The notes under the pieces: generated by a model
What the model saw: the letters and a program-made list of their open reading frames with translations, nothing else
What the model was told of the DNA's origin: nothing
Database searches by the model: none
Program-made: the position numbers and the translations under genes
Virus record (IMG/VR): IMGVR_UViG_3300046721_000217
Location: 1-37,582 of that record
DNA from: a virus
Lineage: Duplodnaviria; Caudoviricetes
Length of the DNA: 37,582 bases
Reading direction: 5' to 3' (one strand)
In this document: piece after piece, positions 19,401-37,335 of the stretch
How the letters are laid out: each line of letters begins with the position of its first letter
Position numbering within the stretch: the first letter of the stretch is position 1

Positions 19401-22400
19401 TGAGGAGTCCGAGGTAGACGATTCCATTGCCCAGCTGTGGAAGCCGGGGGGTCTGGTCGACCAGTTGAATCAGGAAATGGGTGAGGACACAACCAAGATC
19501 TACACCCAAGCAGATTTGATGCCTCCTCCAGCGCCGTCCCGTAATGTGCCACGGCAGATGCGGGAAGAGACAGACGAGGAGTGGGCGGAGCGGGCAGCAC
19601 GATGGAAAGCCCGCCAGGAGGAAGCGAAGCGATCCAAGAAGGCAGTAAAGGTCGGCCCTCGTCAGGTCCAGGAAGAAGAAGATCGGAACACTACCGGTCA
19701 CGGCTTCGACGAGCAGGGTGTTCCGCATGTGTGGACCCGCGACTCGAAAGGGAACGTCCAGACGGTCCCGTTGTCCTCCATCGTCGTACGGATGCCGCGG
19801 CCGGGTGAACACCTTGAGATCAGTGCGCACCCGGACGGCTCCGCCCGCCATGCACTGATCCATGTGGAACGGCCGGACTACGAGACACAGATCTCCATGC
19901 AAGGGTACGGGGATTTCAATCCGAAGTCCTACTTCACGTCCATGTTCTTCAAGAACGTCGACCATGAGCAGACGCATGGTAACGAGGTGCGAGCGTTCTT
20001 CCACAAGGGTGGAATTACCCTCTCAGTGACACCCGGGGAGAAGATCTGGGAAGAGCGGGGCTTCTATGGAGACCCAATCGGGGAGTACGGTTGGCTTGAC
20101 TCTATCGACTGGAGGAGACAGCCATCAAAGCCGGGCTATGCCGGGGGCGGTTCAGCTACTGGGCACCTGGCAGGCTCCGAGGTCAAGCCGAAGCTGGTCA
20201 AGATGAAGGGTGGCGGTACTGCTATAGAGGGGACCCGCATCGGTGATCCGAGACCATCTAGGGCAGCGGGAACCGAGCAGGGGATGTGGATGAACGCCGG
20301 GGCAGGGAAGGGTGAGGACGAAGCTTACCCCGCTCTGACAAAGGCAGCGAAGGAAGCTACGAAGCAGCAACTCAGCTTTGGTCCAGTTCGCGATCCCACA
20401 ACAGGTGACCTGTCTTACTTCGCCCCCCGGCCGAAGAACGAGAAGTGGAAGCCGTACGCAGGGTTCATCCCGGGGCCGATGCGGGATGAGCGGTGGTCGA
20501 GGAACTACTATACGGGGGGCTGGGAGCCGCAAGTCCGTCCGTTCGCAGGTCGAGAGACTCGGATTGACAATCCCTTCCAGCCACAGGTGCCAACACCGAA
20601 CGTGAAGTACTATCGGAAGGGCAGCGCGTTCGCTGGGAAGATCAAGTCCGTCGACTCGGGCGAGACGATCCCGCACGCCGAGACGTCATCAAGGGCAGCG
20701 TGGAAGGTCCGCCGGGGTAAAGAGTTCACTCGCATGACTCCTACGAAATGGGATGTCGAGGGTGAACCGATCGAGATGGGACCCAGTATCGGCATCTCCA
20801 GGATGGGCCCGGAGGACAGGTCGAAGCAGAAACCCTGGCCGGACTTCGAGATCCACCCGGACTACCATGGGCACGCGGAGTTGGCGGATGCGATCAAGTC
20901 GGCCCGAATCCTACTACGACACGGTGTGGATGGGGATACTCCTGTGGCCGTGATGGCTGCGTACACCCAGCACCAGCCGAATTGGACGTCTACCCGGCCC
21001 TGGACCGTACAGGAGCTGGCGGATCATCAGCCACCCCAGATCAGTCTGACACGGCTGCGGGACGAGGCAACACCTAGGGGCATCGAGACGTACGTAGATG
21101 GACCACGGATGATCCTCCGCGCTGCCGACGGCTCTTGGGAGAAGACCTTTGACTCACATCTCGCAGCGGCCCGCTTCGTGGAAAAGATGCCCGGACGGGT
21201 ACTGGATAGACCACTGGACGATGCGTTCGAACAGGCGTTGGGCATCGGGAAATCCCGTAGCTTCGACGCCGACGTCGACGCAGGTGCCTTCCACAAGGTC
21301 GATCTTCAGGAGACCGCGACCAAGGAACTTATCGCAGGGAAGCGACCGCTGATCGTCCTACATGGAGAGGATCCGACGTCCATCTCGAACGCAATCCGTG
21401 CGATTGAGATGATGAACGATCTTCCTCCCGGGACCCACACAGTGCTGCCGTTGAAGGGCACTGGGCACGGGAAGAACGCGGTTGCTATCTATGATACATT
21501 GAGAGCCCGCCAGATGTTGGGCTCCGTGAAGGAAGATGTTGCCCGTCTCGGAGTAAATACGGAGCAGCCGTTCCAGGACGTCCTGCAGGAACTGAGTAAC
21601 AAGAAGTGGGGTCTCGCAGCCCTCTTCGGACGGCCGGAGGGTCCACAGCAGGCCCTGCACTACTCGTGGCTTCGGGAGCACGGGATGAGGGAGTCCTGGA
21701 CCCGCGGGAAACTGACACAGGACTCGATGGGCCCGTACAGGACATTCGATCCGAACGAGATCCTCCTCTCCCGCCGTGGTGGCCCCGGGTCCATGTTCGC
21801 CGGTGGTGAACCGCCCCCGCCATACAATCCGACGTTGGACTTGGAGGACGTGATCCCCGGGTTCCACCCTGATGCACGTATGCACATGCCGCCCGGACCA
21901 GGGATGGCAGAGCCTGAACACCCCGGTTGGTACGGTGACATGCACCCGGAGACAGAGGATGCAACGTACCACGACTGGGGCTGGGGTAAGGGCGACGAAG
22001 CAGCCGAAGCAGCCGAAGCAACCGGTGGCGACGCCGGAGGGGGCGGAGAAGGCGGGGGCGGAGGAGGTCTTCCTACTGGTCCACCGGATACGCCAGAGCA
22101 GAAACGAATCGCGGAGGGCTTCAAGTCCGTCTTCAGCGGCCCGTTCAACCAGCTAGCGCACTTCTTCCGTGTACCCGCGGAGATGTTCAAGGAGTGGGAA
22201 GTACGTAGCGGGATTCCGTTCTCTACGTGGTTCACAGCGATCGAAGACCGGCGGAGTGCCGTCGAAGCCACAATGGGACCCCTCATGGAGAACATGCATG
22301 AGTTGTTCCGTGGCACTACCCAGGACCTTCGGGAAGCAGCCCAGCAGGTCTTCGATGCGCACGCGACGGGCAAGATGCAGGACATTGCGCACATCACGGA

Positions 22401-24015: not shown

Positions 24016-24419
24016 ATGGGATCCGTCACCGGAGCCTCCTCCGGTGACGACTCTTCCAGGGCCTTCGTGATTTCCTTCTCCAAGTCCTTCTTCTTGATCC
24101 CCAGGCTGTAGTACAAACGGCTGTACAGAGCCTGGGGCGACACACCCAGTTGCTTGGCGGTCGTTGGGATGCCCTGCTGTTTGATCTTCAGCAGGAGGTC
24201 ATTCGTCACCTGAACCTTCACACTGTTAGGCCCGCCCCTCTTTCGGATTTCGAGTTGGAGGGACTTGAGCCTGCTTCTCACTGTGTGGGGCGAGCATGCG
24301 AACTTCAAGGACAGCTGGCTGATCGAGAGTTTTCGCTTCTCGTACAGCTCCTTCCACATCTCCACTTCTCCGGGGAACCCTAGCGACTGTGCGAGTGCTT
24401 CCCATTGGGTCATTTCCAT
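24012..24419 (-). CDS. Helix-turn-helix DNA-binding protein
   Basis: Two HTH-like segments: LSISQLSLKFACSPHTVRSRL and IPTTAKQLGVSPQALYSRL. Confidence 0.75.
   Translation of the reverse strand: MEMTQWEALAQSLGFPGEVEMWKELYEKRKLSISQLSLKFACSPHTVRSRLKSLQLEIRKRGGPNSVKVQVTNDLLLKIKQQGIPTTAKQLGVSPQALYSRLYYSLGIKKKDLEKEITKALEESSPEEAPVTDPI
24024..24049. terminator. Perfect 11-bp hairpin at the convergence point (possible terminator or pause site)
   Basis: CGTCACCGGAG-cctc-CTCCGGTGACG, starting 9 nt after the + strand stop; no strong U-tract. Confidence 0.45.
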
Positions 24420-25798
24420 CCCTCAGGCGTCAGGAAGTACGACTTTGTTTTCTGGTCGTACTCGATTAGCTTGGCCTGGCGCATAGTGTCCACGCGCTCC
24501 CGGAACATCCGAGAGTCCATTTTGTTACTGTTCAGGCGGAGCCACTTGCTGTGTTCAAGAGTCCCTCCGTGATTCTTGACCTGCTTGAGCATCCGGGCAT
24601 GGTCCTCCCCGATGTTGCTCTGCGTCAGCTGTTCGAACGTGGCGGGCAGCCACAGCTCCAGCCACTCGAGTATCCGTAGCGCCTGCTTCAGGTGGTGCAC
24701 GTTCAGCTTCTGTGGATCGCCATGTTCCGACGCCGCTAGGATCATCGCGAGTCGAATCATGTGGTCGGGTTTCCTTTCGGAGTAGCCCGCGAACTGCCGC
24801 TCCTCATTCCCGGCGCCGTGTTTGCTGTTGTACCACTCTTCATACCAAGCACGTGTATCAGCGTTCCCAGTATAGAAGGGTACTTCTCCACGGGCACGAG
24901 TAAGAGCAATGAGACCATTACGGAGTTTGGCCTTGAGCAGCTCATCTGGTGGAGGAGGGATTGGAAAGGATCGTGGTGTATCCTCTTGCACAACGAATAG
25001 CAAGCGGGACATGAAACCACCCCCGAAAGCATCACGCGGTATGGCTGTTTGGATCCAATCCAACGTCGATGCCCCGAGGAACGACAGGGCAACATTGTTC
25101 AGCTTCAATTCTCCCCGTCCTATGGTTAACGAACTCCATTCGGCCGGGGCGTCGAATAGAGACGTCAGCATTGGGATCATGCCCTCCTGGTATTTCTGCT
25201 TCCCCAGAAAGACCGCCAGCTCCGGGGCATATAGTAGCCCGCAGGCTGTCTCTCGCTCACGGAAAGCTTCCACCAGAGCCTCAGGCGTAGCCTTGTCAGC
25301 AATGACTTGTCCTCCGAAAGAGCGTACGAGACCCACACTAATATTGCATGCGCTCGTCTTTCTGCACTTTCCGGAAGGGGCCACCAAAACGACGCAGAGG
25401 TTTGGGTAGACGGAGTAGTGACCCTTACGGACGTATACATTACGCTGCATAGCGGCACCGATAGCAACCAGCCCCGCAAAGAAGTGGAAGACGGTAGGTG
25501 GTTCTGTACTCCGGGTGAATTCCACGTAGTCTCGAATCCACCCTGAGGAAGGGACAAGGTTATCGAAATCCGGTATCTTGGTTTTGGGCTGGAGTCGACT
25601 GTCGAGGGTTTTGTCATCGAGTAGGAACTTCTCCTTTATCAGAAGCAGGAGTTCTATGGGACGGCCGCCGGGGGGAACGTCACGTACCCAGTCAAGGATC
25701 TTGTCCAGCGACGAGTCACCAGATGACGTGACGGTCCGCGAACGAAGATGCTGCATCAGCAGTTTGACCTGTTCAGACAGGGGTACAGGGTTTGGCAT
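24410..25798 (-). CDS. DUF3987-like P-loop ATPase / putative replicative helicase
   Basis: EPPTVFH...YPNLCVVLVAPSGKCRKTS, ATPEAL and GGGFMSR motifs; winged-helix-like C-terminus. Confidence 0.7.
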   Translation of the reverse strand: MPNPVPLSEQVKLLMQHLRSRTVTSSGDSSLDKILDWVRDVPPGGRPIELLLLIKEKFLLDDKTLDSRLQPKTKIPDFDNLVPSSGWIRDYVEFTRSTEPPTVFHFFAGLVAIGAAMQRNVYVRKGHYSVYPNLCVVLVAPSGKCRKTSACNISVGLVRSFGGQVIADKATPEALVEAFRERETACGLLYAPELAVFLGKQKYQEGMIPMLTSLFDAPAEWSSLTIGRGELKLNNVALSFLGASTLDWIQTAIPRDAFGGGFMSRLLFVVQEDTPRSFPIPPPPDELLKAKLRNGLIALTRARGEVPFYTGNADTRAWYEEWYNSKHGAGNEERQFAGYSERKPDHMIRLAMILAASEHGDPQKLNVHHLKQALRILEWLELWLPATFEQLTQSNIGEDHARMLKQVKNHGGTLEHSKWLRLNSNKMDSRMFRERVDTMRQAKLIEYDQKTKSYFLTPEGWK

Positions 25799-25799
25799 C

Positions 25800-26528
25800 T
25801 TACATGTACTTACGGGCGAATGCTACGTTGAAGAAGATGTTGGCGAACTGCTCGGAGTCGAACTTCTTCCCGTTGTGATCCAGGAGGCCCTTCCCCCGCA
25901 GCTCGGTGTACTCGTCGATTGCTTGTTTGGCGATCCCGAACTTGACCAGTTTGCCGGTGTCCACGGACGTCCTGTGTGAGATGCCCAGATCGTTGAACAG
26001 GTCAGCGAACAGCTTCATCTCCTGCAGGGACTTCATTCCGAGGAGGTGGATCCTCGGCGGCCACTTAATGTGCTTCGGAGTCGCGTCCACCAGCTCGGAG
26101 AAGTTGCTGTATCGTTCGGACTTGAACGGGAGGCAGAGGAGGTGGGTGTCACTTCGGACCGCGTTGAAGAAAGATACGCGCTCCTCTCGAGTCTTACCCT
26201 GAAGAACGGTTCCCAGCTTGTACGCCGATCCGAGCTTCTTCTTTGTGGCGGTGAAACCTTCGTACGTACGGGCCGCGTCGCCGAGCCAGTCAGGCGCAAT
26301 GACCACGTTGGGGGCGCATCGTTCCGCGGCCTCCGCAATCTCAGTGAGAGACAGAGGCTCACCTCTCTCGTGGAAGCCGTTGTCCAGGATCTTGAAGCGG
26401 GTGGACTTCCGGAAGAACTCGGCATAGTCTGGATCCTCCAACACGAACTGTGCCAGGATGAAATCCAGGTCCACCAGGCTTGAGATTGTCTTGAGCAACG
26501 CCGTAGGTATTTCCATCGATAACTTCAT
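25800..26528 (-). CDS. TGT/DpdA-fold guanine transglycosylase-like protein (short, divergent)
   Basis: Ordered TIM-barrel motifs ILDNG, IAPD, VLQG, IHLLG and SVDT parallel the TGT DSGG, D, QG, LMG and catalytic D motifs; que genes lie nearby. Confidence 0.7.
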   Translation of the reverse strand: MKLSMEIPTALLKTISSLVDLDFILAQFVLEDPDYAEFFRKSTRFKILDNGFHERGEPLSLTEIAEAAERCAPNVVIAPDWLGDAARTYEGFTATKKKLGSAYKLGTVLQGKTREERVSFFNAVRSDTHLLCLPFKSERYSNFSELVDATPKHIKWPPRIHLLGMKSLQEMKLFADLFNDLGISHRTSVDTGKLVKFGIAKQAIDEYTELRGKGLLDHNGKKFDSEQFANIFFNVAFARKYM

Positions 26529-28921
26529 CCGAACAGCTCCTTGTAGAGGTCCTTGTTTCCGTCCTTGGACTCCATCCAGTTGTTGCCGACGGTTACCTCG
26601 GCAGGGGCACGGAAGCCCTCGGGGAAGTATTTCTTGCAGTTCTCCGGATGCCGACTCTGTGCCACGATCTCCGGCCAGATCCGGTTCATCCTTTGCTCGA
26701 GGATCTCCTTCGCGATACGCGCTTCGTCCTTCGCGACCACGAGGACCAGTTCGTCGTGAACCGTGGCCCGAATGGTCGACGCCTTGGCGTGCTGGGTGAG
26801 GTCATCATCCACATCGCACACGCTGACGTACATCATATCCGCACCGGTGCTCTGAATGGGGAAGTTGTACATCTCAGTGACCTGCCGTGTATACCACCAG
26901 CGCCGACGGCCGAAGGGATTGATGAGACACGAGTCCCGTTCAACGGTGTCCATGAAGGTCTCCCGCCACTCGTGCCATTGCGGGAAGAGCTTAAAGATCT
27001 TCTTCATGAACGTCTCGATGTCGGTCTGCGACCGCTTCGTCTGCTTGGCAATGTCCTTAGCCCCGCGGCCGTAGGCCATGCCGTACCAGATGAACTTCGC
27101 CATGTACCTCAGGTGTTCCTGAGACCCGCCCTTGCGGCATTGATCCTTTGAGACCTGGTACGCGTCAGCTGCCATTGACACCAACCAGTCCTCGCCAGAT
27201 GCCAGAATCTCCAGGCCCTTCTCGTCTCCGCTGAGGAACATGGCAATCCGGGTTTCGACCTGGGACCAGTCAGCGGACATGAAAACGTGGTCAGGACTAT
27301 CCGGTACGTAGATCTGTCGAAGTTCCAGCGGGATGTTTTGGAAGTTCGGATCCCAACTGTTGAGGCGTCCTGTTGCTGCTTTAGCCGTACCGAATCTGGG
27401 ATGGACATAGTTGTTCTCATCCTTCTCCACGTTGATGTAGGTGTTGCGGGTGTGATCCAGGGATCGGACCTTACTGATCCCTTGGAGCAGAGGGTCGTCG
27501 TACTGAGCGGCCAGCTTTTCGATAGCTTCCGCATTGGCTGTCGGACGCATCTGCTTGGTCTTCTGGTCCTTGATCTTCTGGACGGGAAGCCCCAGTACGT
27601 CGTAGAGGACGTGCATTACGTCCTTGGATGACTTGGCGTTGAACGACTGACCAAACACGGCACGGAGCTTCTCCTCGTACTCCCGGGCCTTCATGTCCAT
27701 CGCCATGTCCCACCGCAACGCGAGCAACTCGTCCTGCTTCATGCCCAGCTTGTTCATCTTGCGTAGCTTGGGCTGGATCCGGCAGACCGTCCGCATGAGG
27801 TCTTCCATGCCGAGGTCCTTCAGTTCCTTCCGCAGCGAGACTGCACTCCGCCGCTGACCCAGGACGTCCTTCGCGTTGTACAGGAACAGGTTGTCCGAGG
27901 CTGTGTCCTTGTGATACTCCATGTCGGTGTGCAAAGACATGATGTGTCCAAGGTTCTTCGGCTGGTCAGAGTTCGTGAGATGGAACGCTTGTAGTGTGTC
28001 CCACGTTGGCCCGTTGAACGTTATCCCTTTCTCTTCGCAGAAGGGGATGTCGAAGGATTCGATATTCTGGCCTTCGATTTCAATGCCTGGATCAGAGGCC
28101 AGAGAGTTGAACCATTCGGCAACGGCAGGGGTCCAACGGAAAACGTAAGCTGTCTCTTCGTCAACCGCAAAGCCGTTACAGATAATCTGACCTGTGCGAG
28201 GGTCGAGCCCTCCCTTGGGTCCTGGTCCGTGGGTCTCGATGTCGAAGTCAAGAACTCCATGCTCTCTAGCAAGTCGCGTAAGAAGCGTTCCGTGTTCCGC
28301 AAGGCTTGCGTCGAGAACATAGTTGCATGGACGACGTCTGACTTCTGGAAACGCCGACTGGATTTGCGCCCTGTGGAGGTCGTAGATGACCAGGGGCCAG
28401 TTCTCTTGCTGTCGCATGATGTGGGCGGGGTGGAGGGTGGCGAAGACTTTGAGCTTCGTATCTCCCATGGCCGCCTCAATCGGTACTCCACGCTGTTGAT
28501 AAATACCGTTGCGACCCGTTGTGGCGTAGAGTGCTGTTGCTCCGAGGGCGACAACGACATTTGGACGAACGGCTCCCAGCTCGCGGGCAAGAAAGGGAGC
28601 ACAGTGGCGGATTTCGTCATCCGTCGGCGTCCGGTTGTTATTTGGACGACACTTGACGACGTTTGTGACGAAGGCTGCGTCCCGCCGAACTCCAGCCTGG
28701 ATGCACTGCTTGGTGAGGATTCGTCCAGAGCCCCCGATAAAAGGTCGCCCTGGCTTTCCTTGTCTGATGGGGGCAACTTCGTCTTCACCTGGAGCCTCCC
28801 CGAGGAAGAACATCTTTGCAGGCGCCGGGCCCTCTCCCTGGACGGGCCCGGGGTTGTTGAACAGAGGGCAGCCTGTGCACCACTCTGCTTTGCCGTTGGG
28901 CAGTTCGCCGAACTCAAACAC
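26525..28921 (-). CDS. polA: DNA polymerase family A with N-terminal family-4 uracil-DNA glycosylase and 3'-5' exonuclease domains
   Basis: UDG motifs CTGC, GEAPG, PFIG, NVVKCRP, HPA; Exo motifs DIET, NIESFD, YNAKD; Pol motifs TGRL, DWSQVE, KFIWYGMAYG, VHDE. GTG at 28921, overlapping the csp end, is preferred over the 28978 start. Confidence 0.93.
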   Translation of the reverse strand: MFEFGELPNGKAEWCTGCPLFNNPGPVQGEGPAPAKMFFLGEAPGEDEVAPIRQGKPGRPFIGGSGRILTKQCIQAGVRRDAAFVTNVVKCRPNNNRTPTDDEIRHCAPFLARELGAVRPNVVVALGATALYATTGRNGIYQQRGVPIEAAMGDTKLKVFATLHPAHIMRQQENWPLVIYDLHRAQIQSAFPEVRRRPCNYVLDASLAEHGTLLTRLAREHGVLDFDIETHGPGPKGGLDPRTGQIICNGFAVDEETAYVFRWTPAVAEWFNSLASDPGIEIEGQNIESFDIPFCEEKGITFNGPTWDTLQAFHLTNSDQPKNLGHIMSLHTDMEYHKDTASDNLFLYNAKDVLGQRRSAVSLRKELKDLGMEDLMRTVCRIQPKLRKMNKLGMKQDELLALRWDMAMDMKAREYEEKLRAVFGQSFNAKSSKDVMHVLYDVLGLPVQKIKDQKTKQMRPTANAEAIEKLAAQYDDPLLQGISKVRSLDHTRNTYINVEKDENNYVHPRFGTAKAATGRLNSWDPNFQNIPLELRQIYVPDSPDHVFMSADWSQVETRIAMFLSGDEKGLEILASGEDWLVSMAADAYQVSKDQCRKGGSQEHLRYMAKFIWYGMAYGRGAKDIAKQTKRSQTDIETFMKKIFKLFPQWHEWRETFMDTVERDSCLINPFGRRRWWYTRQVTEMYNFPIQSTGADMMYVSVCDVDDDLTQHAKASTIRATVHDELVLVVAKDEARIAKEILEQRMNRIWPEIVAQSRHPENCKKYFPEGFRAPAEVTVGNNWMESKDGNKDLYKELFG

Positions 28922-29114
28922 CGTACTGCACGTTCTCAGCGCGGAGGCCCTTCGGTCCTTTGCTGGGCTGGAATTCAACCTCGTCGCCTTCCTGCAGGGT
29001 ATCGAACTCGATCCCGATCAACCCCGAGCGGTGGAAGAAGTAGTCGTTGTTGTCGGTGCCGCGGATGAAGCCGAAGCCCTTTTCGCGCGTGAGCAGCTTG
29101 ATCTGTCCGGTCAT
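28914..29114 (-). CDS. csp: Cold-shock domain protein
   Basis: RNP1 KGFGFI, RNP2 YFFH, and GPKGLRAENV; AGGAG RBS. Confidence 0.95.
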   Translation of the reverse strand: MTGQIKLLTREKGFGFIRGTDNNDYFFHRSGLIGIEFDTLQEGDEVEFQPSKGPKGLRAENVQYGV

Positions 29115-29123
29115 GTGACGCTC

Positions 29124-29456
29124 CTAGTTGACGATCGGCGGCTTTTCGGTGCCGATGGGAAACCTTGCGACTTCAACATCTAACGTGGACGCTCCGAACC
29201 GAGGACAGCCCGCAGTGTAGTGGGATGCCATCGACATGGCGAGCATGGCCATCAACTCCCGATACGTCTCGGGGCCGATGACCCAGCCGATTGACTTAGC
29301 ACAGAAGGGGCAGACGGCCTCATACTGGAAGCCGTCTTCAGGGTTGCCCCACTGTATGAATGCGACCGGGAAGTTGTGTTGATCCTTCTTCCCGTTCGCA
29401 TCCAGTATCTTCGTGTCGTCGATGATGCACACGAGGATATCATGCACTTTCTTCAC
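29124..29456 (-). CDS. Hypothetical protein, possibly Zn-binding
   Basis: CPFC...HYTAGC; GTGA coupling with folE. Confidence 0.6.
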   Translation of the reverse strand: MKKVHDILVCIIDDTKILDANGKKDQHNFPVAFIQWGNPEDGFQYEAVCPFCAKSIGWVIGPETYRELMAMLAMSMASHYTAGCPRFGASTLDVEVARFPIGTEKPPIVN

Positions 29457-30016
29457 ACATCACCTATGAGCTGGAACAGCTCCTCACGGGCCGCGGGGTT
29501 GAGGAGGAACTGCCCGTACATATTGCTTGTGACGACGTCACCAGTGGACTTGACCCCCCTGCAGCGCATGCAGCCGTGAACTCCAGCGATGACGCACCCA
29601 GCGGCCTTCGGATCCAGTTCGGAGACGAGCATGTCCACAATGGCCTGAGTCAGCTCCTCCTGCAGAATCGGTGCACTGAGCTGGCTCTCTACCGCACGTG
29701 CCAGCTTCGAGAGGCCGAAGACTTTGTGACCCGGAATGTACGCTACGTTGGCGCTCATCTCGAACGGAAGCAGGTGATGAGGGCAAACGCCGAACGCCCG
29801 GTGGTGCCTGAGAAGGACGATCCCCGCCCGCTTTGCTGCGTCGGGAGGGAGGTCGAACGCCTTCAGGTTGTTCGCCGGAGGCGAGAACAGCTCCTTGTAC
29901 ATCCGGGCGACCCGGTCCGGTGTCTCCTTGTAGTGCGGGTCCTCGATGTCTACACCGAAGCCCTGGACGAGCAGCTGCCGAATGGCGAGAAGCGTTTCAG
30001 CTTCGTTGTACTTCAT
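29453..30016 (-). CDS. folE: GTP cyclohydrolase I
   Basis: ETPDRVARMY, CPHHLLPF, GLSKLAR, LQEELT and HGCMRCRGV. Confidence 0.95.
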   Translation of the reverse strand: MKYNEAETLLAIRQLLVQGFGVDIEDPHYKETPDRVARMYKELFSPPANNLKAFDLPPDAAKRAGIVLLRHHRAFGVCPHHLLPFEMSANVAYIPGHKVFGLSKLARAVESQLSAPILQEELTQAIVDMLVSELDPKAAGCVIAGVHGCMRCRGVKSTGDVVTSNMYGQFLLNPAAREELFQLIGDV

Positions 30017-30017
30017 G

Positions 30018-30680
30018 TCACCTCGTGTTCAAGAATTTGTGTAGCTGCGCGGAGACGCGCAGCAGGGGATTCCTCTCGCAGATGTGTACGACGTCGGCCA
30101 GCCGGTCCACGTTGATCGTATGCACGTAGTTCTGGGGCTGGAGATACACGATCTTGCCCTGCTGGGCCCAGCCGACTGCGTCCTCGATGGAGGCCCAGCC
30201 GACAGAGGAATCTCCGAGCCCGCCGTGGATGACTTTGATCTCGTCGGCCTCCTGGATCATCTCGTACAGATACCCGGGTTTGGGGGACACGGTCAAGTGG
30301 ATCATGTTCCTGTAGTGTGGATCCTCGAGCCAGTGAGGCATCACAGTGCCGCTGGTCTCGATCTGGACCTTCAGTCGGCCCTTACCCAGCTTGTTTACGA
30401 GCTCCGTGAGATCCCTGTCGAGGGGTTCTCCGCCCGTGAAGCAGACGTTGGGGATACCTTGAGACCAGGCGTACAGTGCGGTAGCTGTGTACATCCCGCC
30501 GCCCATGTTCTCGTAGCACTTGTCGAAGTCCGTGTCGCAGTGAGTGCATACGCCTTTGCCAACACTGCACCCGACAAGACGGATAAAGGCGGTCATGACG
30601 CCGGTGAGCAGTCCCTCGCCCTGGGGGGCAATGAACTTCTCGGCGAGCGGGTACCGTTTGTCACTCAAGGACCACCCCAC
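30018..30680 (-). CDS. queE: 7-carboxy-7-deazaguanine synthase (radical SAM)
   Basis: QGEG...FIRLVGC, CTHCDT, TGGEP, IETSG, VSPK, YLQP and QLHK. Confidence 0.93.
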   Translation of the reverse strand: MGWSLSDKRYPLAEKFIAPQGEGLLTGVMTAFIRLVGCSVGKGVCTHCDTDFDKCYENMGGGMYTATALYAWSQGIPNVCFTGGEPLDRDLTELVNKLGKGRLKVQIETSGTVMPHWLEDPHYRNMIHLTVSPKPGYLYEMIQEADEIKVIHGGLGDSSVGWASIEDAVGWAQQGKIVYLQPQNYVHTINVDRLADVVHICERNPLLRVSAQLHKFLNTR

Positions 30681-31050
30681 AGTCCCGCGTCTCCTTGACC
30701 GCGATGTAGACGTGATGGATCGGGAAGGACTTCTGCAGTTCGTCCCGCCAGGTGATTGCGAGCTCCTCCGCCGTCGGGTGAACGGGCAGGAGGATCAGTC
30801 GAGCGTAGGCACGGATCTCTTCGGCGGCGGGGTCAAGCTCGTGGAGAGCAAAGGCGTGATCCCACCGTTCGAAGATGCCCTTGACACGGGTCTTCAGGTC
30901 GGAGAAGTCGATGACCATGCCGGTCATGTCCACGTGGCCCTGGAGCTCCACGCGGATGAGATAGTTATGACCGTGTAGGTAACGACACTTGCCCTGGTGG
31001 TTCATCAGTCGGTGCCCCATGGGCAGTTCGTAGTCAAAGGTGAGGAGCAT
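30661..31050 (-). CDS. queD: 6-carboxy-5,6,7,8-tetrahydropterin synthase
   Basis: GHRL...GKCRYLHGHNY, GMVIDFSDLK, WDH, PTAE and KET; start placed at ATG 31050. Confidence 0.93.
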   Translation of the reverse strand: MLLTFDYELPMGHRLMNHQGKCRYLHGHNYLIRVELQGHVDMTGMVIDFSDLKTRVKGIFERWDHAFALHELDPAAEEIRAYARLILLPVHPTAEELAITWRDELQKSFPIHHVYIAVKETRDCGVVLE

Positions 31051-31246
31051 CAGCGGCACCCGGATCATGGAGTAAGGCCACATCGGCGAGGAATTTCGCG
31101 ATGAGGGTTTCGAACTTCGAGTCCAGCAGCCGTCGGACAGCGGGTGACCCGACGTCGCTGAGGATGGAGTGAGCGTCACCGGTCGTTGTCTGCATCGTCA
31201 CGGTCAGCTTGATTCCGCGGCGTTCGCAGATGAAGGTCTCCATCAT
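31034..31246 (-). CDS. Hypothetical protein
   Basis: ATGA coupling with the upstream gene; 70 aa (MMETFICERR...). Confidence 0.5.
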   Translation of the reverse strand: MMETFICERRGIKLTVTMQTTTGDAHSILSDVGSPAVRRLLDSKFETLIAKFLADVALLHDPGAADAPHL

Positions 31247-31713
31247 TTGAGTCGCTCCGTACGTTCGAGCTCCATGAGGGCGAAGCATCCCCAAGCGGCA
31301 GCGGCAAGGTCATCTCCGTCGGTTTCTCTGCCACGGGTGACGTGGATCGCCGCCGTTTCTTTGGAGACGCCACCGAAGTCTCTGACGTCACCTTCGGAGA
31401 CTTCCCGGAGGAACTCCTTGCGGCGCTCTTTGTACTTCTCGAGGTGCTCGATGATGTGATTGAACGTGTCGTCGAAGGGGAGCCCGAGCTTGTAGTTGTG
31501 CTCGCCGTACTTGAGCCCCATTTCGAAACGAGCCGCGAGGCGAACCAGGCCGGAATTGGGAATGAGATCATAGCGTGGTTTGACCTCACTTCTCTGAGCC
31601 CCGGTTTCGAAGGTGTGAACGGGTTCGATCGGAGACGTACCGCTCGCCTTCAGGCCAGCGTCGAGGCGGAGGCCCGCTCTTGCGATCGGACCAGGATCGA
31701 TTCTCTCGCTCAT
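31243..31713 (-). CDS. dATP/dGTP diphosphohydrolase domain protein (DUF5664-like)
   Basis: FETGAQR...KPRYDLIP...GLKYGEHNYKLG...HL...DDLAAAAW; AAAGGAG RBS. Confidence 0.8.
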   Translation of the reverse strand: MSERIDPGPIARAGLRLDAGLKASGTSPIEPVHTFETGAQRSEVKPRYDLIPNSGLVRLAARFEMGLKYGEHNYKLGLPFDDTFNHIIEHLEKYKERRKEFLREVSEGDVRDFGGVSKETAAIHVTRGRETDGDDLAAAAWGCFALMELERTERLK

Positions 31714-31728
31714 AGAACTCCTTTAACG

Positions 31729-31767
31729 AAAAAGTCGGGAGGAGGACCTTGCGGTCCGTCCCCCCGA
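31729..31767 (-). terminator. Rho-independent terminator
   Basis: Minus strand reads TCGGGGGGACGGACC-GCAA-GGTCCTCCTCCCGA-CTTTTT: GC stem, GNRA loop and U-tract, just after the SSB-like gene. Confidence 0.8.
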
Positions 31768-31791
31768 ACAGTTTACGGAACCACGAGAAGA

Positions 31792-32256
31792 TTACGCCTT
31801 CTCGTTCTGCGTGGCCATGTACCGCCCGACGCGGTTCTGGGCCTGGTAGTAGTTCCCGTCCTTGCCCTTGCCGGCCTTCTGACGGGTGACGACGCCGTAG
31901 CACTCACGGTCGATCCAGGTATCGGTGTCGAGAGGCTCGTCCTCGTCGAACTCGAGCGCCTTCATGATCTGGCGGATCTTCCAGTCGTCGCCGGGCGCGA
32001 GCGACAGGTAGTTGTCGAAGACGTGACGGCCGTACGTCTCGCCCTCGTCCTGGACGACCAGGTCCAGCGTGAGGTAGGGGTAGGTGTCCTCGCCCTTCTT
32101 GTTGCGGTACACCGGGATGCCGAACTCGTTCTCGCCGCTCTGCTCGGAGTCCTTGGGCTCCTTGAACGTCACCTTGTTGACGCGCAGGCGGTAGGTGGCC
32201 TCGGGGATCGTGTTGTCCTCGGCCATGTCCTTCTGACGGAAGTTGTCGAAACGCAT
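31792..32256 (-). CDS. DUF669-like single-stranded DNA-binding protein
   Basis: IPEATYRLRV...YGRHVFDN...QNRV; follows the Sak4-like ATPase; strongly biased codons. Confidence 0.7.
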   Translation of the reverse strand: MRFDNFRQKDMAEDNTIPEATYRLRVNKVTFKEPKDSEQSGENEFGIPVYRNKKGEDTYPYLTLDLVVQDEGETYGRHVFDNYLSLAPGDDWKIRQIMKALEFDEDEPLDTDTWIDRECYGVVTRQKAGKGKDGNYYQAQNRVGRYMATQNEKA

Positions 32257-32261
32257 GATCG

Positions 32262-32351
32262 TTATCTCCTCTGACGTTCATTAGTGATGAGCACCATGAT
32301 CACCACTGTGACTAGAAACAAGCCCGGGTTTAGCGCGAACAGAAAGATCAT
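32262..32351 (-). CDS. 29-aa single-TM microprotein (not in the ORF track)
   Basis: MIFLFALNPGLFLVTVVIMVLITNERQRR*; nearly fills the gap between the ATPase and SSB genes. Confidence 0.5.
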   Translation of the reverse strand: MIFLFALNPGLFLVTVVIMVLITNERQRR

Positions 32352-32355
32352 CGCG

Positions 32356-33183
32356 CTAACTACGAACGGGGACAGGAGCTTCAGCCTTCCTCTGTGCGAC
32401 GAGCGCTTGCAGTGCGCTCTTGTCTCCCATCGTGAGCTTGAACACCTCGGTCATGTTCGTACCGATGTACGTCGGGACCGAGAAGTTCAAGGGGACGCGG
32501 AACCCAGCCACGGTCCGGGCAATGGTCGTGGTGCAGATCATCCGCTTCCCGTTCTGGATGACGCCACGCAGTGTAGCGTCCGGCCAGCCGGGCAGTTCAC
32601 GAGGTAGCTTCTGTCCGGGGAGCTCAGGAGCCCAGAAGACGATTTTCTCCTTGCCCTGGCCTTCCTCGATGACCGCCTCGCGAGCGAGGAACAAGCAGTG
32701 GGCGTCGAGGCCCATGATGATCTTCGCTGTCTGACGGCCCTTCTCTGCGACGTAGGGATAGGCTTGCCGTGGGTCCTTACGTGCAACCCCTTTGGGACCG
32801 TCTCCTGCGTCCCAAACCATGTCCCAGCCGTGGATGGCCTTAGCCTCGTCGAGCCAAAGCTCCCCGGTAGCGCTGAGGGAGTCGAGCACGATTGTCTCGA
32901 ACGTTTCCCCAGCGTATTCGACCTTCCCCGACTTGCGACCGAGTTCCGCCACCACGGCGTGCAGTGTGTCGATGTCCTCGATCTCAATGAAGGGGATGTC
33001 GTCGTCCTTGAGTGACTGGAGCCCTTTCGTATCTCCAATCTCCGTTGCCAGGACGAGAGGCTTCGGACACGTGCGGATGAGAGTGGTCTTGCCCCACCGT
33101 GCAGGTGCGTAGAGCAGCACCTTCGCCCGCGTGTTCTGCATCTGGGACGTGCGCTTCAGAGGTGGTAGTTTTCCAGGCGGCAT
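32356..33183 (-). CDS. Sak4-like / AAA_24 ATPase (single-strand annealing)
   Basis: Walker A YAPARWGKTT and Walker B IVLDS; part of an exonuclease-ATPase-SSB module. Confidence 0.78.
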   Translation of the reverse strand: MPPGKLPPLKRTSQMQNTRAKVLLYAPARWGKTTLIRTCPKPLVLATEIGDTKGLQSLKDDDIPFIEIEDIDTLHAVVAELGRKSGKVEYAGETFETIVLDSLSATGELWLDEAKAIHGWDMVWDAGDGPKGVARKDPRQAYPYVAEKGRQTAKIIMGLDAHCLFLAREAVIEEGQGKEKIVFWAPELPGQKLPRELPGWPDATLRGVIQNGKRMICTTTIARTVAGFRVPLNFSVPTYIGTNMTEVFKLTMGDKSALQALVAQRKAEAPVPVRS

Positions 33184-33189
33184 GCCATG

Positions 33190-33420
33190 TTATCCTTTGT
33201 TTGGACGTTTACCGACGACTCCGTAGTGGAGTTTGTTATCCAGGACGATGAACGTCTGGAAGTCTTGCCAATCCAGACCGTCACGATCGACCTGTACCTG
33301 GATAAGTGTCGCCCCGCCGTATTGCGCGAGACGACACTGCCCCCAGTGGTTGTTCTCCTCGTCATAGAGATCGAAGGGAACGGAGTACTTCTCACCGATC
33401 CGTGTCGGGTTCGGTGACAT
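33190..33420 (-). CDS. Hypothetical protein
   Basis: ATG 33420 with GAGGA upstream; globular-looking sequence (MSPNPTRIGEKY...). Confidence 0.5.
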   Translation of the reverse strand: MSPNPTRIGEKYSVPFDLYDEENNHWGQCRLAQYGGATLIQVQVDRDGLDWQDFQTFIVLDNKLHYGVVGKRPNKG

Positions 33421-33595
33421 CGGGGTCCTCGTCCGGCTCGGGCTCGTCGACGTCTCCCACGATGTCCGTGACGACATCCTCGTACGCGAGCTCGTCGCTG
33501 AGGTTGTTGACGTCGTCCTCCGTGAGGTCCCGGTTCTCCTTCACGGCGGTGGTGACCTTGTTCACGAGGAGCTCGACGAATTCATCACGCTTCAT
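33392..33595 (-). CDS. Small highly acidic protein
   Basis: MKRDEFVELL...; D/E-rich; strongly biased codons. Confidence 0.6.
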   Translation of the reverse strand: MKRDEFVELLVNKVTTAVKENRDLTEDDVNNLSDELAYEDVVTDIVGDVDEPEPDEDPDVTEPDTDR

Positions 33596-33893
33596 ACTGC
33601 TGCTCACCTTCTTCCAGAATGGCGAGACAGGATCCTTCTGGCAGGATCCAGAACTCTGTGTCTCTCAGAGTGAAGCGACGCCCGGCGAATTTGTCTACAA
33701 GGACCCACTGGCCCGTGAGATCCTCGCCGAATCGAAACGTCGCTCTGTGCAGGTGGCAGAATGCCCTCTGCGCCAGCTTGTGTGCGGTGTCAGGTAAGAT
33801 CAGTGTGGCTCTTGACCCCGGCACCTGATGGGTCGTCACCTTCCGGGCCTTCGACACGATCATCTGGCCGAGTAAGGGACGTAACGAGTTCAC
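33585..33893 (-). CDS. Divergent GroES/Cpn10-like co-chaperonin
   Basis: LRPLLGQMIV...LILPDTA...GQWVLVDKFAG...EFWILPEGSCLAILE follows the Cpn10 pattern. Confidence 0.7.
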   Translation of the reverse strand: MNSLRPLLGQMIVSKARKVTTHQVPGSRATLILPDTAHKLAQRAFCHLHRATFRFGEDLTGQWVLVDKFAGRRFTLRDTEFWILPEGSCLAILEEGEQQYEA

Positions 33894-34080
33894 TGAACGT
33901 CCTCTCCAGGAACTCCGTCTCCTGGGACAGCTCTGCGTTCAGTCGCATCACTGTCGGGATGTGAGGGCCCCTGCTCAGCTGCGTCGCCAGCTCGGCCTGC
34001 AGCCTCGATACCTCGCTGATGTGCAGCGTTAACCGAGACTGGATCGATGGCTTTGGATCCCCTGTCTGCGTCGTCGACAT
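33790..34080 (-). CDS. Candidate fully overprinted helical protein
   Basis: ATG 34080 with GAGGGACAAGGA upstream; amphipathic helices encoded in the alternate frame of the exonuclease tail. Confidence 0.4.
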   Translation of the reverse strand: MSTTQTGDPKPSIQSRLTLHISEVSRLQAELATQLSRGPHIPTVMRLNAELSQETEFLERTFSELVTSLTRPDDRVEGPEGDDPSGAGVKSHTDLT

Positions 34081-34972
34081 AGTCCTTGTCCCTCTGCATG
34101 AACAGTGCCCGCTTGACGGGATTGTCTTCCAGGCACAGATCGCGGTACGGGCAGGTTCCGTATCTAAAGCACTCCTTGGTGTTCTTGTACCACACGTTCT
34201 TCGGGTTCTCTCCTGCCTTGACACGTGCGCGGCGCCAAGCGATCTCCCGCACCATCTCGACGAACTCGCCCTCGAAGTCCAGCAACTCGTCGTCGGAGCG
34301 CGCAAACGGCTCCTGGTGGAACTTGATCGTTTGGGCCTTCGTGATGACGTCCACGATGACCCCTGCGACTCGCTCGCCCAGGATCTTCGACGCTCCGTAC
34401 ACGTACGCGGTGAACTGCAGGTCCATCTCGTACTTCATGACGTCCCGCATGTCCAGTTTCGCGGCTGTCTTGTGATCCACGATCCAGATGCGGTTCGCCC
34501 AGTTCACCAGGCGATCCGTTCGGAATACGAGGAAACAGCCGGTGCCTTCACCGACCTCCACGCGGCCGCTGCATTCGATTCCGAGGGGCTGGTACAGGAC
34601 CTTCCCACCGTACTCGATGTCGTACGCTCGGATGAGCCGCTCGACAAGGATGACGTGTTCCTTCAGCTCCGTTTCGTCGTACATGAGCTTCTGCTTGGGA
34701 AGGGACTCACGCAGTGATTCAGTCGCGGCACGCACCGCCTTCTCTACACCGTGACCCCCGCCCATGACAGCCATTCCTTCGTGAAAGGCTTTCCCGTCCT
34801 CGAGTGCCCACCGCGGCCTGTCTGGGACCAAACCGATCTCGAACAGCCACCAGTACTTCCGTTTGCAGTCCAGGAAGAACTGCAGGCGGGACTGGTTCAT
34901 ATTCGTGATCGGGCTGAAGAAGTCCTCGAACGGGATCAGCTCCCCGTCCAGCTCGATGGCGAAGCTATGCAT
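33890..34972 (-). CDS. Cas4/AddB-like PD-(D/E)XK exonuclease
   Basis: DCKRKY, G.AFH, RTDRL, VDHKT, QFTAY and C...CPY..LC (four Cys, Fe-S type); start at ATG 34972 after GGAGG. Confidence 0.85.
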   Translation of the reverse strand: MHSFAIELDGELIPFEDFFSPITNMNQSRLQFFLDCKRKYWWLFEIGLVPDRPRWALEDGKAFHEGMAVMGGGHGVEKAVRAATESLRESLPKQKLMYDETELKEHVILVERLIRAYDIEYGGKVLYQPLGIECSGRVEVGEGTGCFLVFRTDRLVNWANRIWIVDHKTAAKLDMRDVMKYEMDLQFTAYVYGASKILGERVAGVIVDVITKAQTIKFHQEPFARSDDELLDFEGEFVEMVREIAWRRARVKAGENPKNVWYKNTKECFRYGTCPYRDLCLEDNPVKRALFMQRDKDYVDDADRGSKAIDPVSVNAAHQRGIEAAGRAGDAAEQGPSHPDSDATERRAVPGDGVPGEDVQ

Positions 34973-35189
34973 TGTCGTCCTCCTCGAAGGACTCGAGTGC
35001 ATCCATGGCCGCGTTGTACCACAACTGGGCCTGCTCGGCGTTGGTCATAGCGACCGCGATCCGCCGCTGGTAGTTCGGGTCGTCCGTGTTCAGCGTCTTG
35101 GCGGACTTGAGCGTCGCCGCCAGGTCCATGAACAGGGCGTCAGCGGCCTCGACGTTCTTCTGCTTGTCGTAGAACTTGGGTTTGGCCAT
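34965..35189 (-). CDS. Hypothetical helical protein
   Basis: MAKPKFY...RRIAVAMTNAEQAQLW; GAGGA RBS. Confidence 0.6.
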   Translation of the reverse strand: MAKPKFYDKQKNVEAADALFMDLAATLKSAKTLNTDDPNYQRRIAVAMTNAEQAQLWYNAAMDALESFEEDDNA

Positions 35190-35190
35190 G

Positions 35191-35379
35191 TCAGTCCTCG
35201 TGCAAGTCGAAGTGGACGCGGATCTTGCTGTGCTCATTCAGCCACTGTTCCATCTGGAGGATCATCGCCGTCTCCGACAGCTGCAGGTCGTTCATCGGGA
35301 CGTTCAGCGTCTCCTGCATCTGTTGATGGATTTCCTGGCTCGGTGGGTAGATGAAGGTCATTCTCAGTACTAGCGGCAT
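35191..35379 (-). CDS. Hypothetical protein overlapping the upstream gene tail
   Basis: AAAGGAG RBS before ATG 35379; MPLVLRMTFIYPP...RVHFDLHED. Confidence 0.55.
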   Translation of the reverse strand: MPLVLRMTFIYPPSQEIHQQMQETLNVPMNDLQLSETAMILQMEQWLNEHSKIRVHFDLHED

Positions 35380-36049
35380 TCTCTGCTCCTTTGGCTGGCG
35401 TGTTAAGTCCGAACAAGTATGAGCAGGCCATGGGGACGTTGCCATCCCGCGGCCTGATGTATCCCTCGAAGGGGTGATCGTATCCACCGGTTTCCCCAGA
35501 AGGGATGCTAAGCCGAACACGGAGCATCTCTCCTTGGTACCGAATCGAGAGCCATCCACCACCGACCAGACCGGTCATTCGAATGGTCCGTTCGATGATC
35601 GAAGGGATGACCACGCAGCCGCTCAAGTCGGGCCAGATTTCCCGTTGCGTCGGGATCTGTAGTACTTCAGGGTCAGGCGCGGGCTCTTGCTCCATCTTGG
35701 AGATGGCAACAGCGACTGCGTCGGCGAGTTTCGGGTCCATCTTGACTGCATCGTCCTCGACGAGGAAGTCTTTGACGGACTGCCGGAAGCCGTAGCTGGT
35801 CCACTTGGTACAGAGCATGACGATGTAATCAGCACAAGTGGTTTCGTCCCATCCGAGTGAGACCCACTTGAGCATGTACTTGCGGTAGGGTCCCGCTGCG
35901 TTAGGACCCAGGATCTGGAGACCCAGAAGGGCGTCTCCTTCGTTATTCGTTCGGAGCCAGCACTTGGATCCTTCGTCCCAGGTCCAGATGTCCTCTCTGC
36001 CATGGAAGTGCTCCTCGAGTTCCTCGACTTCCCACCAGGTGAGGATCAT
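35234..36049 (-). CDS. Hypothetical protein
   Basis: ATGA coupling at 36046-36049 (MILTWWEVEE...); acidic disordered tail. Confidence 0.55.
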   Translation of the reverse strand: MILTWWEVEELEEHFHGREDIWTWDEGSKCWLRTNNEGDALLGLQILGPNAAGPYRKYMLKWVSLGWDETTCADYIVMLCTKWTSYGFRQSVKDFLVEDDAVKMDPKLADAVAVAISKMEQEPAPDPEVLQIPTQREIWPDLSGCVVIPSIIERTIRMTGLVGGGWLSIRYQGEMLRVRLSIPSGETGGYDHPFEGYIRPRDGNVPMACSYLFGLNTPAKGAENAASTENDLHLPTEPGNPSTDAGDAERPDERPAAVGDGDDPPDGTVAE

Positions 36050-36243
36050 GCCTTTTCCTTGGTGAGCTCGTCGTAGAACTCGCCACTGAACAGGCGGTAT
36101 TGGCCATCGAACATGTCGAGGTACATTACACCGGTGCCCTCGGTGCCGTTGATGATGACCGTGCCAACCTGCTTGTAGAACTTCTCGCCGTTGTTGTTGG
36201 TCTTCTGCTTCTTGATGACGAACTTCGTAGCCTGTGCGTTCAC
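36046..36243 (-). CDS. Small beta-rich protein, possibly nucleic-acid binding
   Basis: GEKFYKQVGTV...YLDMF; GTGA/ATGA coupling on both sides. Confidence 0.6.
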   Translation of the reverse strand: MNAQATKFVIKKQKTNNNGEKFYKQVGTVIINGTEGTGVMYLDMFDGQYRLFSGEFYDELTKEKA

Positions 36244-36452
36244 TTCTTTGCGCTCCTTCGGCGAATGCTACGTTCCAATTCACGCCGGTACACGAGATTC
36301 CCTTCGAGGTAGTCCAGGACGATGTCCGTGAGAAAGCGGGAAAGCGTCATACCCTGTTCCTCCGCCAACTGGGCGCAGAATCGCATGACCTGTTTCCGAT
36401 CCTTGCGGACATACGTGCTGTGTGCGTAAGCGTTTTTTCCAACTCGGTACAC
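36240..36452 (-). CDS. Ribbon-helix-helix-like regulator
   Basis: HSTYV strand followed by helices (AQLAEEQGMTLSRFLTDIVLDYL); AAAGGAG RBS. Confidence 0.65.
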   Translation of the reverse strand: MYRVGKNAYAHSTYVRKDRKQVMRFCAQLAEEQGMTLSRFLTDIVLDYLEGNLVYRRELERSIRRRSAKK

Positions 36453-36481
36453 GAGAGACTCCTTTGCTTAGAAACGGTCGA

Positions 36482-36667
36482 TCAAACGATGTCGATGACG
36501 TCCTGGCCTCTGATGATGGCCTGTGTGTAGTAGATTGCCTCGTCGATCTCCAGGTCGATCCCATGGTTACTCAGGAACGTGAGGAAGTCGAACACGAGAC
36601 GGATTTCCCACTCCTCAACAGTGAAGTGGGGCGGTTTCGGCGGAACACGGAACTCCAGGATGGTCAC
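36482..36667 (-). CDS. Hypothetical protein
   Basis: GTG overlaps the queC stop (TAGTG). Confidence 0.55.
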   Translation of the reverse strand: MTILEFRVPPKPPHFTVEEWEIRLVFDFLTFLSNHGIDLEIDEAIYYTQAIIRGQDVIDIV

Positions 36668-37335
36668 TAGGTGTTCTCGTATACCGTCGGATCAGTGACG
36701 CCAGCGTCGAAGAACGCCTCGCGGCGCTCGGTACACGTTCCACAGACACCGCAGTGCACGCCCTTGGCTCCCTTGTAGCAGGAGTATGTCATGTCCCACG
36801 GCACGTGCAGCGAGTGACCCTTGGTGACGATGTCCGCCTTGCTCTGGTTGAGGAACGGCACGACCAGCTTGACCTGCTTCCAGTCGCACAGCTCGAGGGC
36901 CTTCTGCATCGCCTTGACGAACTGTGGTCGGCAGTCAGGGTAGATTGCGTGGTCACCAGCGTGAGCACCGTAGAAGATCTGTTCGGTCCCGTTCGAGATC
37001 GCAAACGCTGCCGCAATGCTGAGCATCATCATGTTCCGATTTGGAACGACGGTGCCCTTCATCGACTCGTCGGCGTAGTGACCTTCGGGCACTTTGACGT
37101 CCGGGTTGACCAGGGATGAGTCCGAGCCGCTGAAGATCCGCGATCCGCTCAGGTCGATGATCGTATGTGGGACGTTGAAGTGCTGTGCGATTACCGACGC
37201 CGAGATCAGCTCGGTGCGGTGGCGCTGTCCGTAATTGAACGACAGGGCGTGCACGTCGTTATCGAGGTACTGGGCCAAAGCCAGGACGGTGGTGGAGTCC
37301 ATTCCGCCTGACAAGAGGACGACTGCTTTACTCAC
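36667..37335 (-). CDS. queC: 7-cyano-7-deazaguanine (preQ0) synthase
   Basis: SGGMDS, YGQRH, VPNRN, YPDCR, TYSCY and CGVCGTC.ERREAF. Confidence 0.96.
   Translation of the reverse strand: MSKAVVLLSGGMDSTTVLALAQYLDNDVHALSFNYGQRHRTELISASVIAQHFNVPHTIIDLSGSRIFSGSDSSLVNPDVKVPEGHYADESMKGTVVPNRNMMMLSIAAAFAISNGTEQIFYGAHAGDHAIYPDCRPQFVKAMQKALELCDWKQVKLVVPFLNQSKADIVTKGHSLHVPWDMTYSCYKGAKGVHCGVCGTCTERREAFFDAGVTDPTVYENT

Follow-up and report, generated by a model that had tools for sequence, protein, structure and literature searches.

The stretch of DNA considered here, the 37,582-base virus record IMGVR_UViG_3300046721_000217 (called the window below), comes from a tailed phage that carries the genes for synthesis of the 7-deazaguanine preQ0 (7-cyano-7-deazaguanine) together with a short guanine transglycosylase of the tRNA-guanine transglycosylase (TGT) fold, identified below as DpdA3. 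The chances are about even that this phage replaces nearly all of its guanine (G) with preQ0, most likely by base exchange on free deoxyguanosine monophosphate (dGMP) before replication. All the genes named in the initial annotation of this DNA (folE, queD, queE, queC, the TGT-fold gene, polA and a DUF5664 gene) are real by profile or structure matches, and all lie on the minus strand, as does the adjoining primase gene:

25800..26528, minus strand: dpdA3, TGT-fold guanine transglycosylase of 242 residues (tblastn, phrog_19058, HHalign, fold, motifs)
26525..28921, minus strand: polA, family A DNA polymerase with N-terminal family-4 uracil-DNA glycosylase (UDG) domain and 3'-5' exonuclease (PF03167, 2e-25; PF00476, 1e-60)
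29453..30016, minus strand: folE, GTP cyclohydrolase I (PF01227, 1e-41)
30018..30680, minus strand: queE, radical S-adenosylmethionine synthase of 7-carboxy-7-deazaguanine (PF04055, 3e-7; PHROG QueE, 1e-18; Cx6CxxC spacing)
30661..31050, minus strand: queD, 6-carboxytetrahydropterin (CPH4) synthase (PF01242, 2.3e-24)
31243..31713, minus strand: DUF5664, dATP/dGTP diphosphohydrolase family (PF18909, 1.2e-9; alignment; distribution)
36667..37335, minus strand: queC, preQ0 synthase without a glutamine-amidotransferase fusion (PF06508, 1.7e-66; TIGR00364)
24410..25798, minus strand: DUF3987 replication protein of primase/helicase type, immediately past dpdA3 (included as context and as the anchor for surveying the clade)

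The 242-residue protein has no match in Pfam, NCBIfam or the sequences of the PDB. A tblastn search of 50,697 phage records matched 19: 14 of Campylobacter phages and 4 of Flavobacterium immuto phages (E 2e-9 to 3e-8, 74-82% of the query) and, weakly, one Aeromonas record. The immuto counterpart is annotated as DNA guanine transglycosylase, and the window protein is assigned to phrog_19058. In the PDB, its AlphaFold model (mean predicted local distance difference test, pLDDT, 95) matches DpdA 7ui4 best and TGTs next; among viral proteins, one from phiST ranks second (E 2e-13, template modelling score 0.74). HHalign aligns it end to end with the CP220/immuto DpdA3 pair (99.9%, E 3e-31, 235 columns), whereas DpdA1 of phage 9g gives E 0.25 and phmmer finds no DpdA1 in the five complete genomes of the clade (G001-G005). 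The motifs are D49-N-G, A-P-D80, Q110-G, H161-L-L-G and S188-x-D190; D49, D80 and D190 are taken to be the TGT catalytic residues, by motif rather than by superposition. In a 12-row alignment that includes seven cultured members, D49 and D190 are invariant in all rows and D80 in 11. By sequence comparison, then, the protein is a member of DpdA3, a family of 4,778 representatives at E 0.001 in which Cui 2023 names phiST CGPG_00065, CP220 and immuto gp65. It is not the separate subfamily supposed in the initial annotation, where DpdA3 was not named.

This assignment bears directly on the extent of replacement. According to Cui 2023, no deoxyguanosine (dG) was detected in phiST, which contains 2'-deoxy-7-deazaguanine (dDG), or in immuto_2-6A, which contains the formylated preQ1 nucleoside fdPreQ1, and CP220 is cited as having 100% dADG, the deoxynucleoside whose base is 7-amido-7-deazaguanine. 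Because the TGT gene of the window is a DpdA3, and three of three measured DpdA3 lineages are fully replaced, near-complete replacement of G is by analogy very probable, and the earlier proposal of genome-wide replacement is well supported.

FolE, QueD, QueE and QueC are all present and intact in the window by family profiles, and the conversion of GTP to preQ0 is established for these families. QueC scores 204.5 bits against TIGR00364 (cut-off 150.3). QueE has Cx6CxxC in place of Cx3CxxC, a six-residue spacing found in 41 of 49 pattern matches (all loci, duplicates included). No phmmer match to QueF, DpdL, DpdN or the amidotransferase domain of Gat-QueC was obtained in G001-G005 except a weak cross-match with FolE. 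The sister genome G001 (49,073 bases, rated 100% complete) is more than 99% identical to the window where compared; the 11.5 kb that it adds hold portal, terminase and small early open reading frames (ORFs), and no further nucleotide enzyme was found there. The lack of QueF and Gat-QueC reported from the window is thus borne out in a complete genome; for ArcS, also reported missing, no ArcS-type family occurs among the scanned ORFs, and no search was made with ArcS or DpdM queries of their own. With QueC present and QueF, DpdL and DpdN absent, the base is predicted to be preQ0. Given replacement, this identity is probable, and a near-complete dPreQ0 genome as a whole is slightly favoured. A host QueF could give preQ1 instead. 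Since 7-deazaguanines protect other phages' DNA from restriction enzymes, such protection is the likely purpose here too.

A route through free nucleotides is favoured by gene context across the DpdA3 family, mainly by kinases, and this contradicts the published view. Seven cultured dpdA3 phages, representing some five lineages, were examined: CP220, immuto, phiST, MA9V-3, Ahp1_CNU-2021, Youna2 and BSP7. Every one of them has a nucleotide-kinase-like gene no more than 0.7 kb from dpdA3, and in six the two genes are direct neighbours. Four profile families are represented: phrog_2107 in CP220 (gp057) and immuto (gp68), phrog_761 in Youna2 and BSP7, phrog_19196/AAA_18 in phiST and, as a homolog, MA9V-3, and T4-type deoxynucleoside monophosphate kinase (DNMK) in Ahp1 (1.7e-17). 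The phiST gene, CGPG_00066 (L040:7520-7999), is P-loop kinase-like (AAA_18, E 1e-6) and directly precedes dpdA3. It was discounted in Cui 2023 for want of homologs among the other deazaguanine phages, and the word 'kinase' is missing from the main text of that paper. Hydrolase-type genes also flank dpdA3: immuto and phiST have MazG-fold genes, MA9V-3 and Ahp1 have genes of the dCTP-deaminase/dUTPase fold, and CP220 encodes an HD plus P-loop protein. The phiST MazG/dUTPase is mentioned in Cui 2023, as is ADG nucleoside in CP220-infected cytoplasm. In Youna2 (L036), BSP7 (L039), MA9V-3 (L037) and Ahp1_CNU-2021 (L038), dpdA3 and the neighbouring kinase are both annotated as 'hypothetical'; these phages may be listed in Data S1 of Cui 2023.

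The immuto clade has a kinase in 59 of 59 and a MazG-fold gene in 58 of 59 (the 59 of 80 loci with 2.5 kb on both sides, all one clade). Phosphoribosyltransferase genes occur near dpdA3 in 51 of these 59 loci and in L013, L148, L149 and L188. In L160, an unrelated phage, DUF5664 is again found, 2.9 kb from dpdA3.

The controls were ten DpdA1 genes, that of 9g and nine chosen for spread from 233 records, and none has a kinase within 4 kb. This negative comes from a P-loop pattern, from annotation, from 31 selected ORFs without annotation that were scanned against Pfam, and from the DUF3310 profile; since the pattern missed two of seven known kinases, the control leans also on the other three. 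A dNTPase-type gene lies within 5 kb of two of the ten (Dp-1 dUTPase, BcepGomr MazG), so hydrolases are less specific to dpdA3 than kinases are. Most control genes adjoin clamp and polymerase, and polymerase adjacency was accordingly dropped as evidence. The sole nucleotide-transfer enzyme among the controls is a nucleoside deoxyribosyltransferase 0.9 kb from DpdA1 in Edwardsiella phage ZHS (L167:6718-7128).

In the proposed mechanism, preQ0 would be made from GTP by FolE, QueD, QueE and QueC. DUF5664 would hydrolyse dGTP to dGMP and pyrophosphate, lowering dGTP and feeding the exchange, a step that some relatives do without. On dGMP, as gene context suggests, preQ0 would then take the place of guanine through DpdA3; guanine exchange as such is established for TGT-fold enzymes. 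Because no phage kinase was found, host guanylate kinase and nucleoside-diphosphate kinase are proposed to make the triphosphate, which the UDG-PolA could incorporate with no special selectivity. That the DpdA3 family exchanges the base on dGMP is at least an even prospect, perhaps slightly better.

The distribution of the nucleotide genes was surveyed in the clade of the window. With the primase gene as anchor, 65 loci were obtained, of which 57 have dpdA3; the eight without it are distant (26-37% primase identity) and have no que match. Four metagenome loci were added, and the 42 of 69 that reach ssb, sak4 or exo were kept; merging those with 90% identity in the primase left 34 clusters. Among the 29 clusters with dpdA3, DUF5664 occurs in 16, a DUF1599-like protein in the same slot in one, an extra MazG-like protein in two and DUF3310 in eight, and 24 of the 29 carry at least one such gene. 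To DUF3310 belongs T7 gp1.7, a dTMP/dGMP kinase (PMC10700055, PMC7693777). Seven of the eight DUF3310 clusters are on branches lacking DUF5664, and in all seven clusters of those branches the gene falls within the que/dpdA3 run or heads it:

L206:9481-9975, L207:9562-9885, L209, L212, L213, L215 and L218, strand not stated: DUF3310 (profile match)

Among the five dpdA3-negative clusters DUF3310 occurs in none; the left-out locus L224 has a weak DUF3310 match. In a quick tree, DUF5664 with dpdA3 is confined to one branch of 21 rows and DUF3310 fills the outer branches; the pattern amounts to few independent events, and the dpdA3-negative control is thin. In this clade the co-occurrence of DUF5664 with the TGT gene, suggested as a check in the initial annotation, is seen in 16 clusters, where DUF5664 heads the que run, and it falls in a single branch. 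The DUF5664 slot between ssb and queD is filled in L189 (1839-2183) and L190 (2201-2578) by a phrog_1485 protein, a profile also matched by the DUF1599 protein of L158.

The assignment of the window protein to DUF5664 stands (38.5 bits against PF18909, cut-off 27); its single-sequence structure model is unusable (pLDDT 40). The role of removing dGTP, ascribed to it together with the family, has fared less well. The characterised member converts dNTPs to dNMPs with a kcat of about 0.48 per s for dATP, 0.22 for dUTP and 0.053 for dGTP (PMC12884076), and the gene is dispensable, being present in three of the five complete clade genomes and missing from G003 and G004. That DUF5664 acts as the dGTPase falls just short of an even prospect; since PolA carries a UDG domain, action as a dUTPase is of roughly equal likelihood.

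According to the published model, DpdA3 acts on DNA as a very efficient transglycosylase and exchanges preQ0 into freshly made strands, perhaps coupled to the fork, and DUF5664 is a housekeeping, dUTPase-like enzyme working with the UDG domain. This is a less probable explanation than exchange on dGMP, although a substantial one. The conclusion drawn in Cui 2023 is that every modification of this kind is post-replicative; DpdA1 and DpdA2 modify DNA in Escherichia coli (Cui 2023; Hutinet 2019); the catalytic aspartates are common to DpdA3 and DpdA1; in most clade members dpdA3 stays between polA and primase with or without DUF5664; DUF5664 does hydrolyse dUTP; and the window phage has no kinase. 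The model leaves unexplained the five kinase families beside dpdA3, set against none at ten DpdA1 genes, and so many families beside one enzyme are hard to account for if its product is finished DNA. It would require some 29,000 exchanges per 49-kb genome (0.59 GC). DpdA1, DpdA2 and DpdA4 replace at most about 32% of G (for DpdA1 levels see also PMC10484667), and in E. coli tests DpdA3 failed to modify DNA (Cui 2023).

Several further observations weigh against exchange on dGMP. No characterised TGT-fold enzyme is known to act on anything other than polynucleotides. Neither charge nor the zinc motif separates DpdA3 from DpdA1: median isoelectric points are 5.5 for 16 DpdA3 and 6.3 for 10 DpdA1 proteins (8.4 for the window protein), and CxCxxC is absent in both groups. 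Five of the 29 dpdA3-positive clusters have no nucleotide gene at all, and DUF5664 occurs in one of the five dpdA3-negative clusters. Confinement to one branch means that DUF5664 with dpdA3 may be a single acquisition. In G003 and G004 no other searched hydrolase was found either, and no tested kinase family, DUF3310 included, was found in the five complete inner-clade genomes, sister G001 among them. A preference of DUF5664 for dATP would harm a phage with normal adenine (A). Twelve other metagenomic dpdA3 loci (L145-L154, L158 and L160, in which selected ORFs of at least 80 residues were scanned) have a kinase in three, a dNTPase-type gene in five and neither in six; L151-L154 have QueC, and QueF in three, with neither kinase nor dNTPase among the scanned ORFs. 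The window phage is a weaker case, lacking a kinase, and not the strongest example. On the published side, Cui 2023 holds insertion of preQ0 by DpdA3 unlikely, and DUF5664 also occurs in phages with canonical genomes (PMC12884076, whose accessible text does not mention deazaguanine). A possible second DpdA3-type gene was noticed by eye in L153 (11399-12178).

A mixed route is improbable. DpdA3 would act on DNA or oligonucleotides, turnover nucleotides would be re-phosphorylated, a dGTPase would shift the pool, and optional kinases and hydrolases would raise the level towards 100%. The patchy accessory genes and the phosphoribosyltransferase genes near dpdA3 are consistent with it. More steps are required, however, and a kinase directly adjoining dpdA3 in six of seven cultured phages better fits direct hand-over.

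The strong form of the initial annotation, in which a DpoZ-like polymerase selects the analogue and DUF5664 is an obligatory dGTP remover, is very unlikely. The 4-nt overlap of dpdA3 with the polA stop and the position of DUF5664 at the head of the que run would fit it. The UDG-PolA, however, scores only 65.6 bits against the DpoZ model NF038380 (cut-off 500) and shows what we take to be ordinary motifs A-C and exonuclease motifs, with nothing special to suggest selection of the analogue. Nor is DUF5664 present in all complete relatives, and polymerases adjoin DpdA1 as well, so that the description of this PolA as dedicated was not upheld. Ordinary polymerases, moreover, accept 7-deaza-dGTPs (Hutinet 2019).

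The gene set of the window can also be set beside known systems. With the DpdA3 phages phiST, immuto and CP220 (PMC10516641) the window shares full-length DpdA3 homology and FolE, QueD and QueE; with phiST and immuto it shares a dNTP-pyrophosphohydrolase-type gene near dpdA3 (MazG-fold there, DUF5664 here), and with immuto a nearby polymerase. It differs from all three in having QueC and no QueF, DpdL or DpdN, in lacking an adjacent kinase, in a DpdA3 only 21-29% identical, and in its genome of 49 kb, which has UDG-PolA and genes of short-tail type. Closer in layout are Bacillus phage BSP7 and Weizmannia phage Youna2, where queC-queD-queE-folE-dpdA3-polA form one run with dpdA3 overlapping polA. 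Unlike in the window, a thymidylate-kinase-like gene there overlaps dpdA3, and DUF5664 was not seen in the stretch examined; no published base analysis of either phage was found. The DpdA1 dPreQ0 systems (CAjan, Rosebush, iggy) have the same four preQ0 genes and a TGT-fold enzyme beside replication genes, but their enzyme is dissimilar in profile and about 50 residues longer, modification is 16-32%, and no kinase is nearby. The Z-genome pathway (PurZ, DatZ/DutZ, MazZ/DUF550/DUF5664, DpoZ; PMC12884076) also includes DUF5664, and the proposed sequence of dGTP to dGMP, new nucleotide, host kinases and phage PolA would parallel it. The window has no PurZ, its PolA is not DpoZ, and a base-exchange enzyme would stand in place of the synthetase; the G version is a proposal.

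The type of system is known, and a modified dGTP used by a polymerase was earlier proposed for Campylobacter phages (Hutinet 2019, citing Crippen 2019). What is new is the large uncultured clade with DpdA3 and QueC only, for which full dPreQ0 is predicted, and the links to DUF5664 and DUF3310. A literature search, with subscription papers mostly out of reach, returned no nucleotide test of DpdA3 and no link between DUF5664 and que genes. The question at stake is how phages attain 100% G replacement, for which the paper naming DpdA3 assumes editing of finished DNA, although its attempts to demonstrate activity failed. Were dGMP the substrate of DpdA3, the failed tests would be explained, the TGT fold would have a new activity, and a small gene set for DNA without canonical G would be at hand, with BSP7 and Youna2 as cultured phages bearing the same gene run. 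The widest statement is tentative and rather less than an even prospect: that DpdA3 is a dGMP transglycosylase, the first TGT-fold enzyme on a free nucleotide, which with interchangeable dGTPases (DUF5664, MazG, DUF1599-like) and with kinases either of the phage (thymidylate-kinase-like, T4 DNMK, T7 gp1.7-like) or of the host would constitute pre-replicative whole-genome G replacement, and that the clade of about 49 kb would hold the first fully dPreQ0 genomes.

Capsid, tail-collar and ejection-type proteins are encoded in the left part of the window, and a block of replication genes on the minus strand makes up the right part. In the latter, dpdA3 ends 1 nt before the DUF3987 gene, and queC lies about 5 kb upstream of the que run, with exonuclease, Sak4 and SSB genes between. 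The probable start of queD is ATG 31050 and that of polA GTG 28921; the ORF-finder extensions to 31179 and 28978 are too long. The queD-queE-folE-csp-polA-TGT run of the initial annotation is broken by two small conserved ORFs. The remaining genes of this part are:

28914..29114, minus strand: csp, cold-shock protein (family match), which varies across the clade and is probably outside the pathway
29124..29456, minus strand: ORF of 110 residues (no family match; in four of five complete clade genomes)
31034..31246, minus strand: ORF of 70 residues, flanked by DUF5664 and queD (relatives have small ORFs resembling it in this position)

Elsewhere, an Acb2/Tad1 hairpin-like ORF at 34965-35237 (minus strand; PF24729, E 1.9e-5, 25.2 bits, below the cut-off of 27) is, by its sequence, a possible anti-defence sponge, and L008 (12152-12400) has a similar match. 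A GroES-like ORF at 33585-33893 (minus strand) in the replication run has itself no family match, and an ORF at its position in L143 has a weak Cpn10 match. A virion protein of 2511 residues with an N-terminal lysozyme domain is encoded at 16480-24015 (plus strand). Inner-clade DpdA3 proteins have no relative in GTDB genomes and so give no host lead. Observed/expected ratios of AT-only versus G-containing palindromes in the window and L026 are 1.24 and 0.99 for 4-mers and 0.93 and 0.94 for 6-mers, and relatives are mixed, so that palindrome counts carry no information on the replacement of dG. CTAG is under-represented in the window and L026 (0.53); 9g shows a like deficit (0.62), which probably reflects a bias of a general kind.

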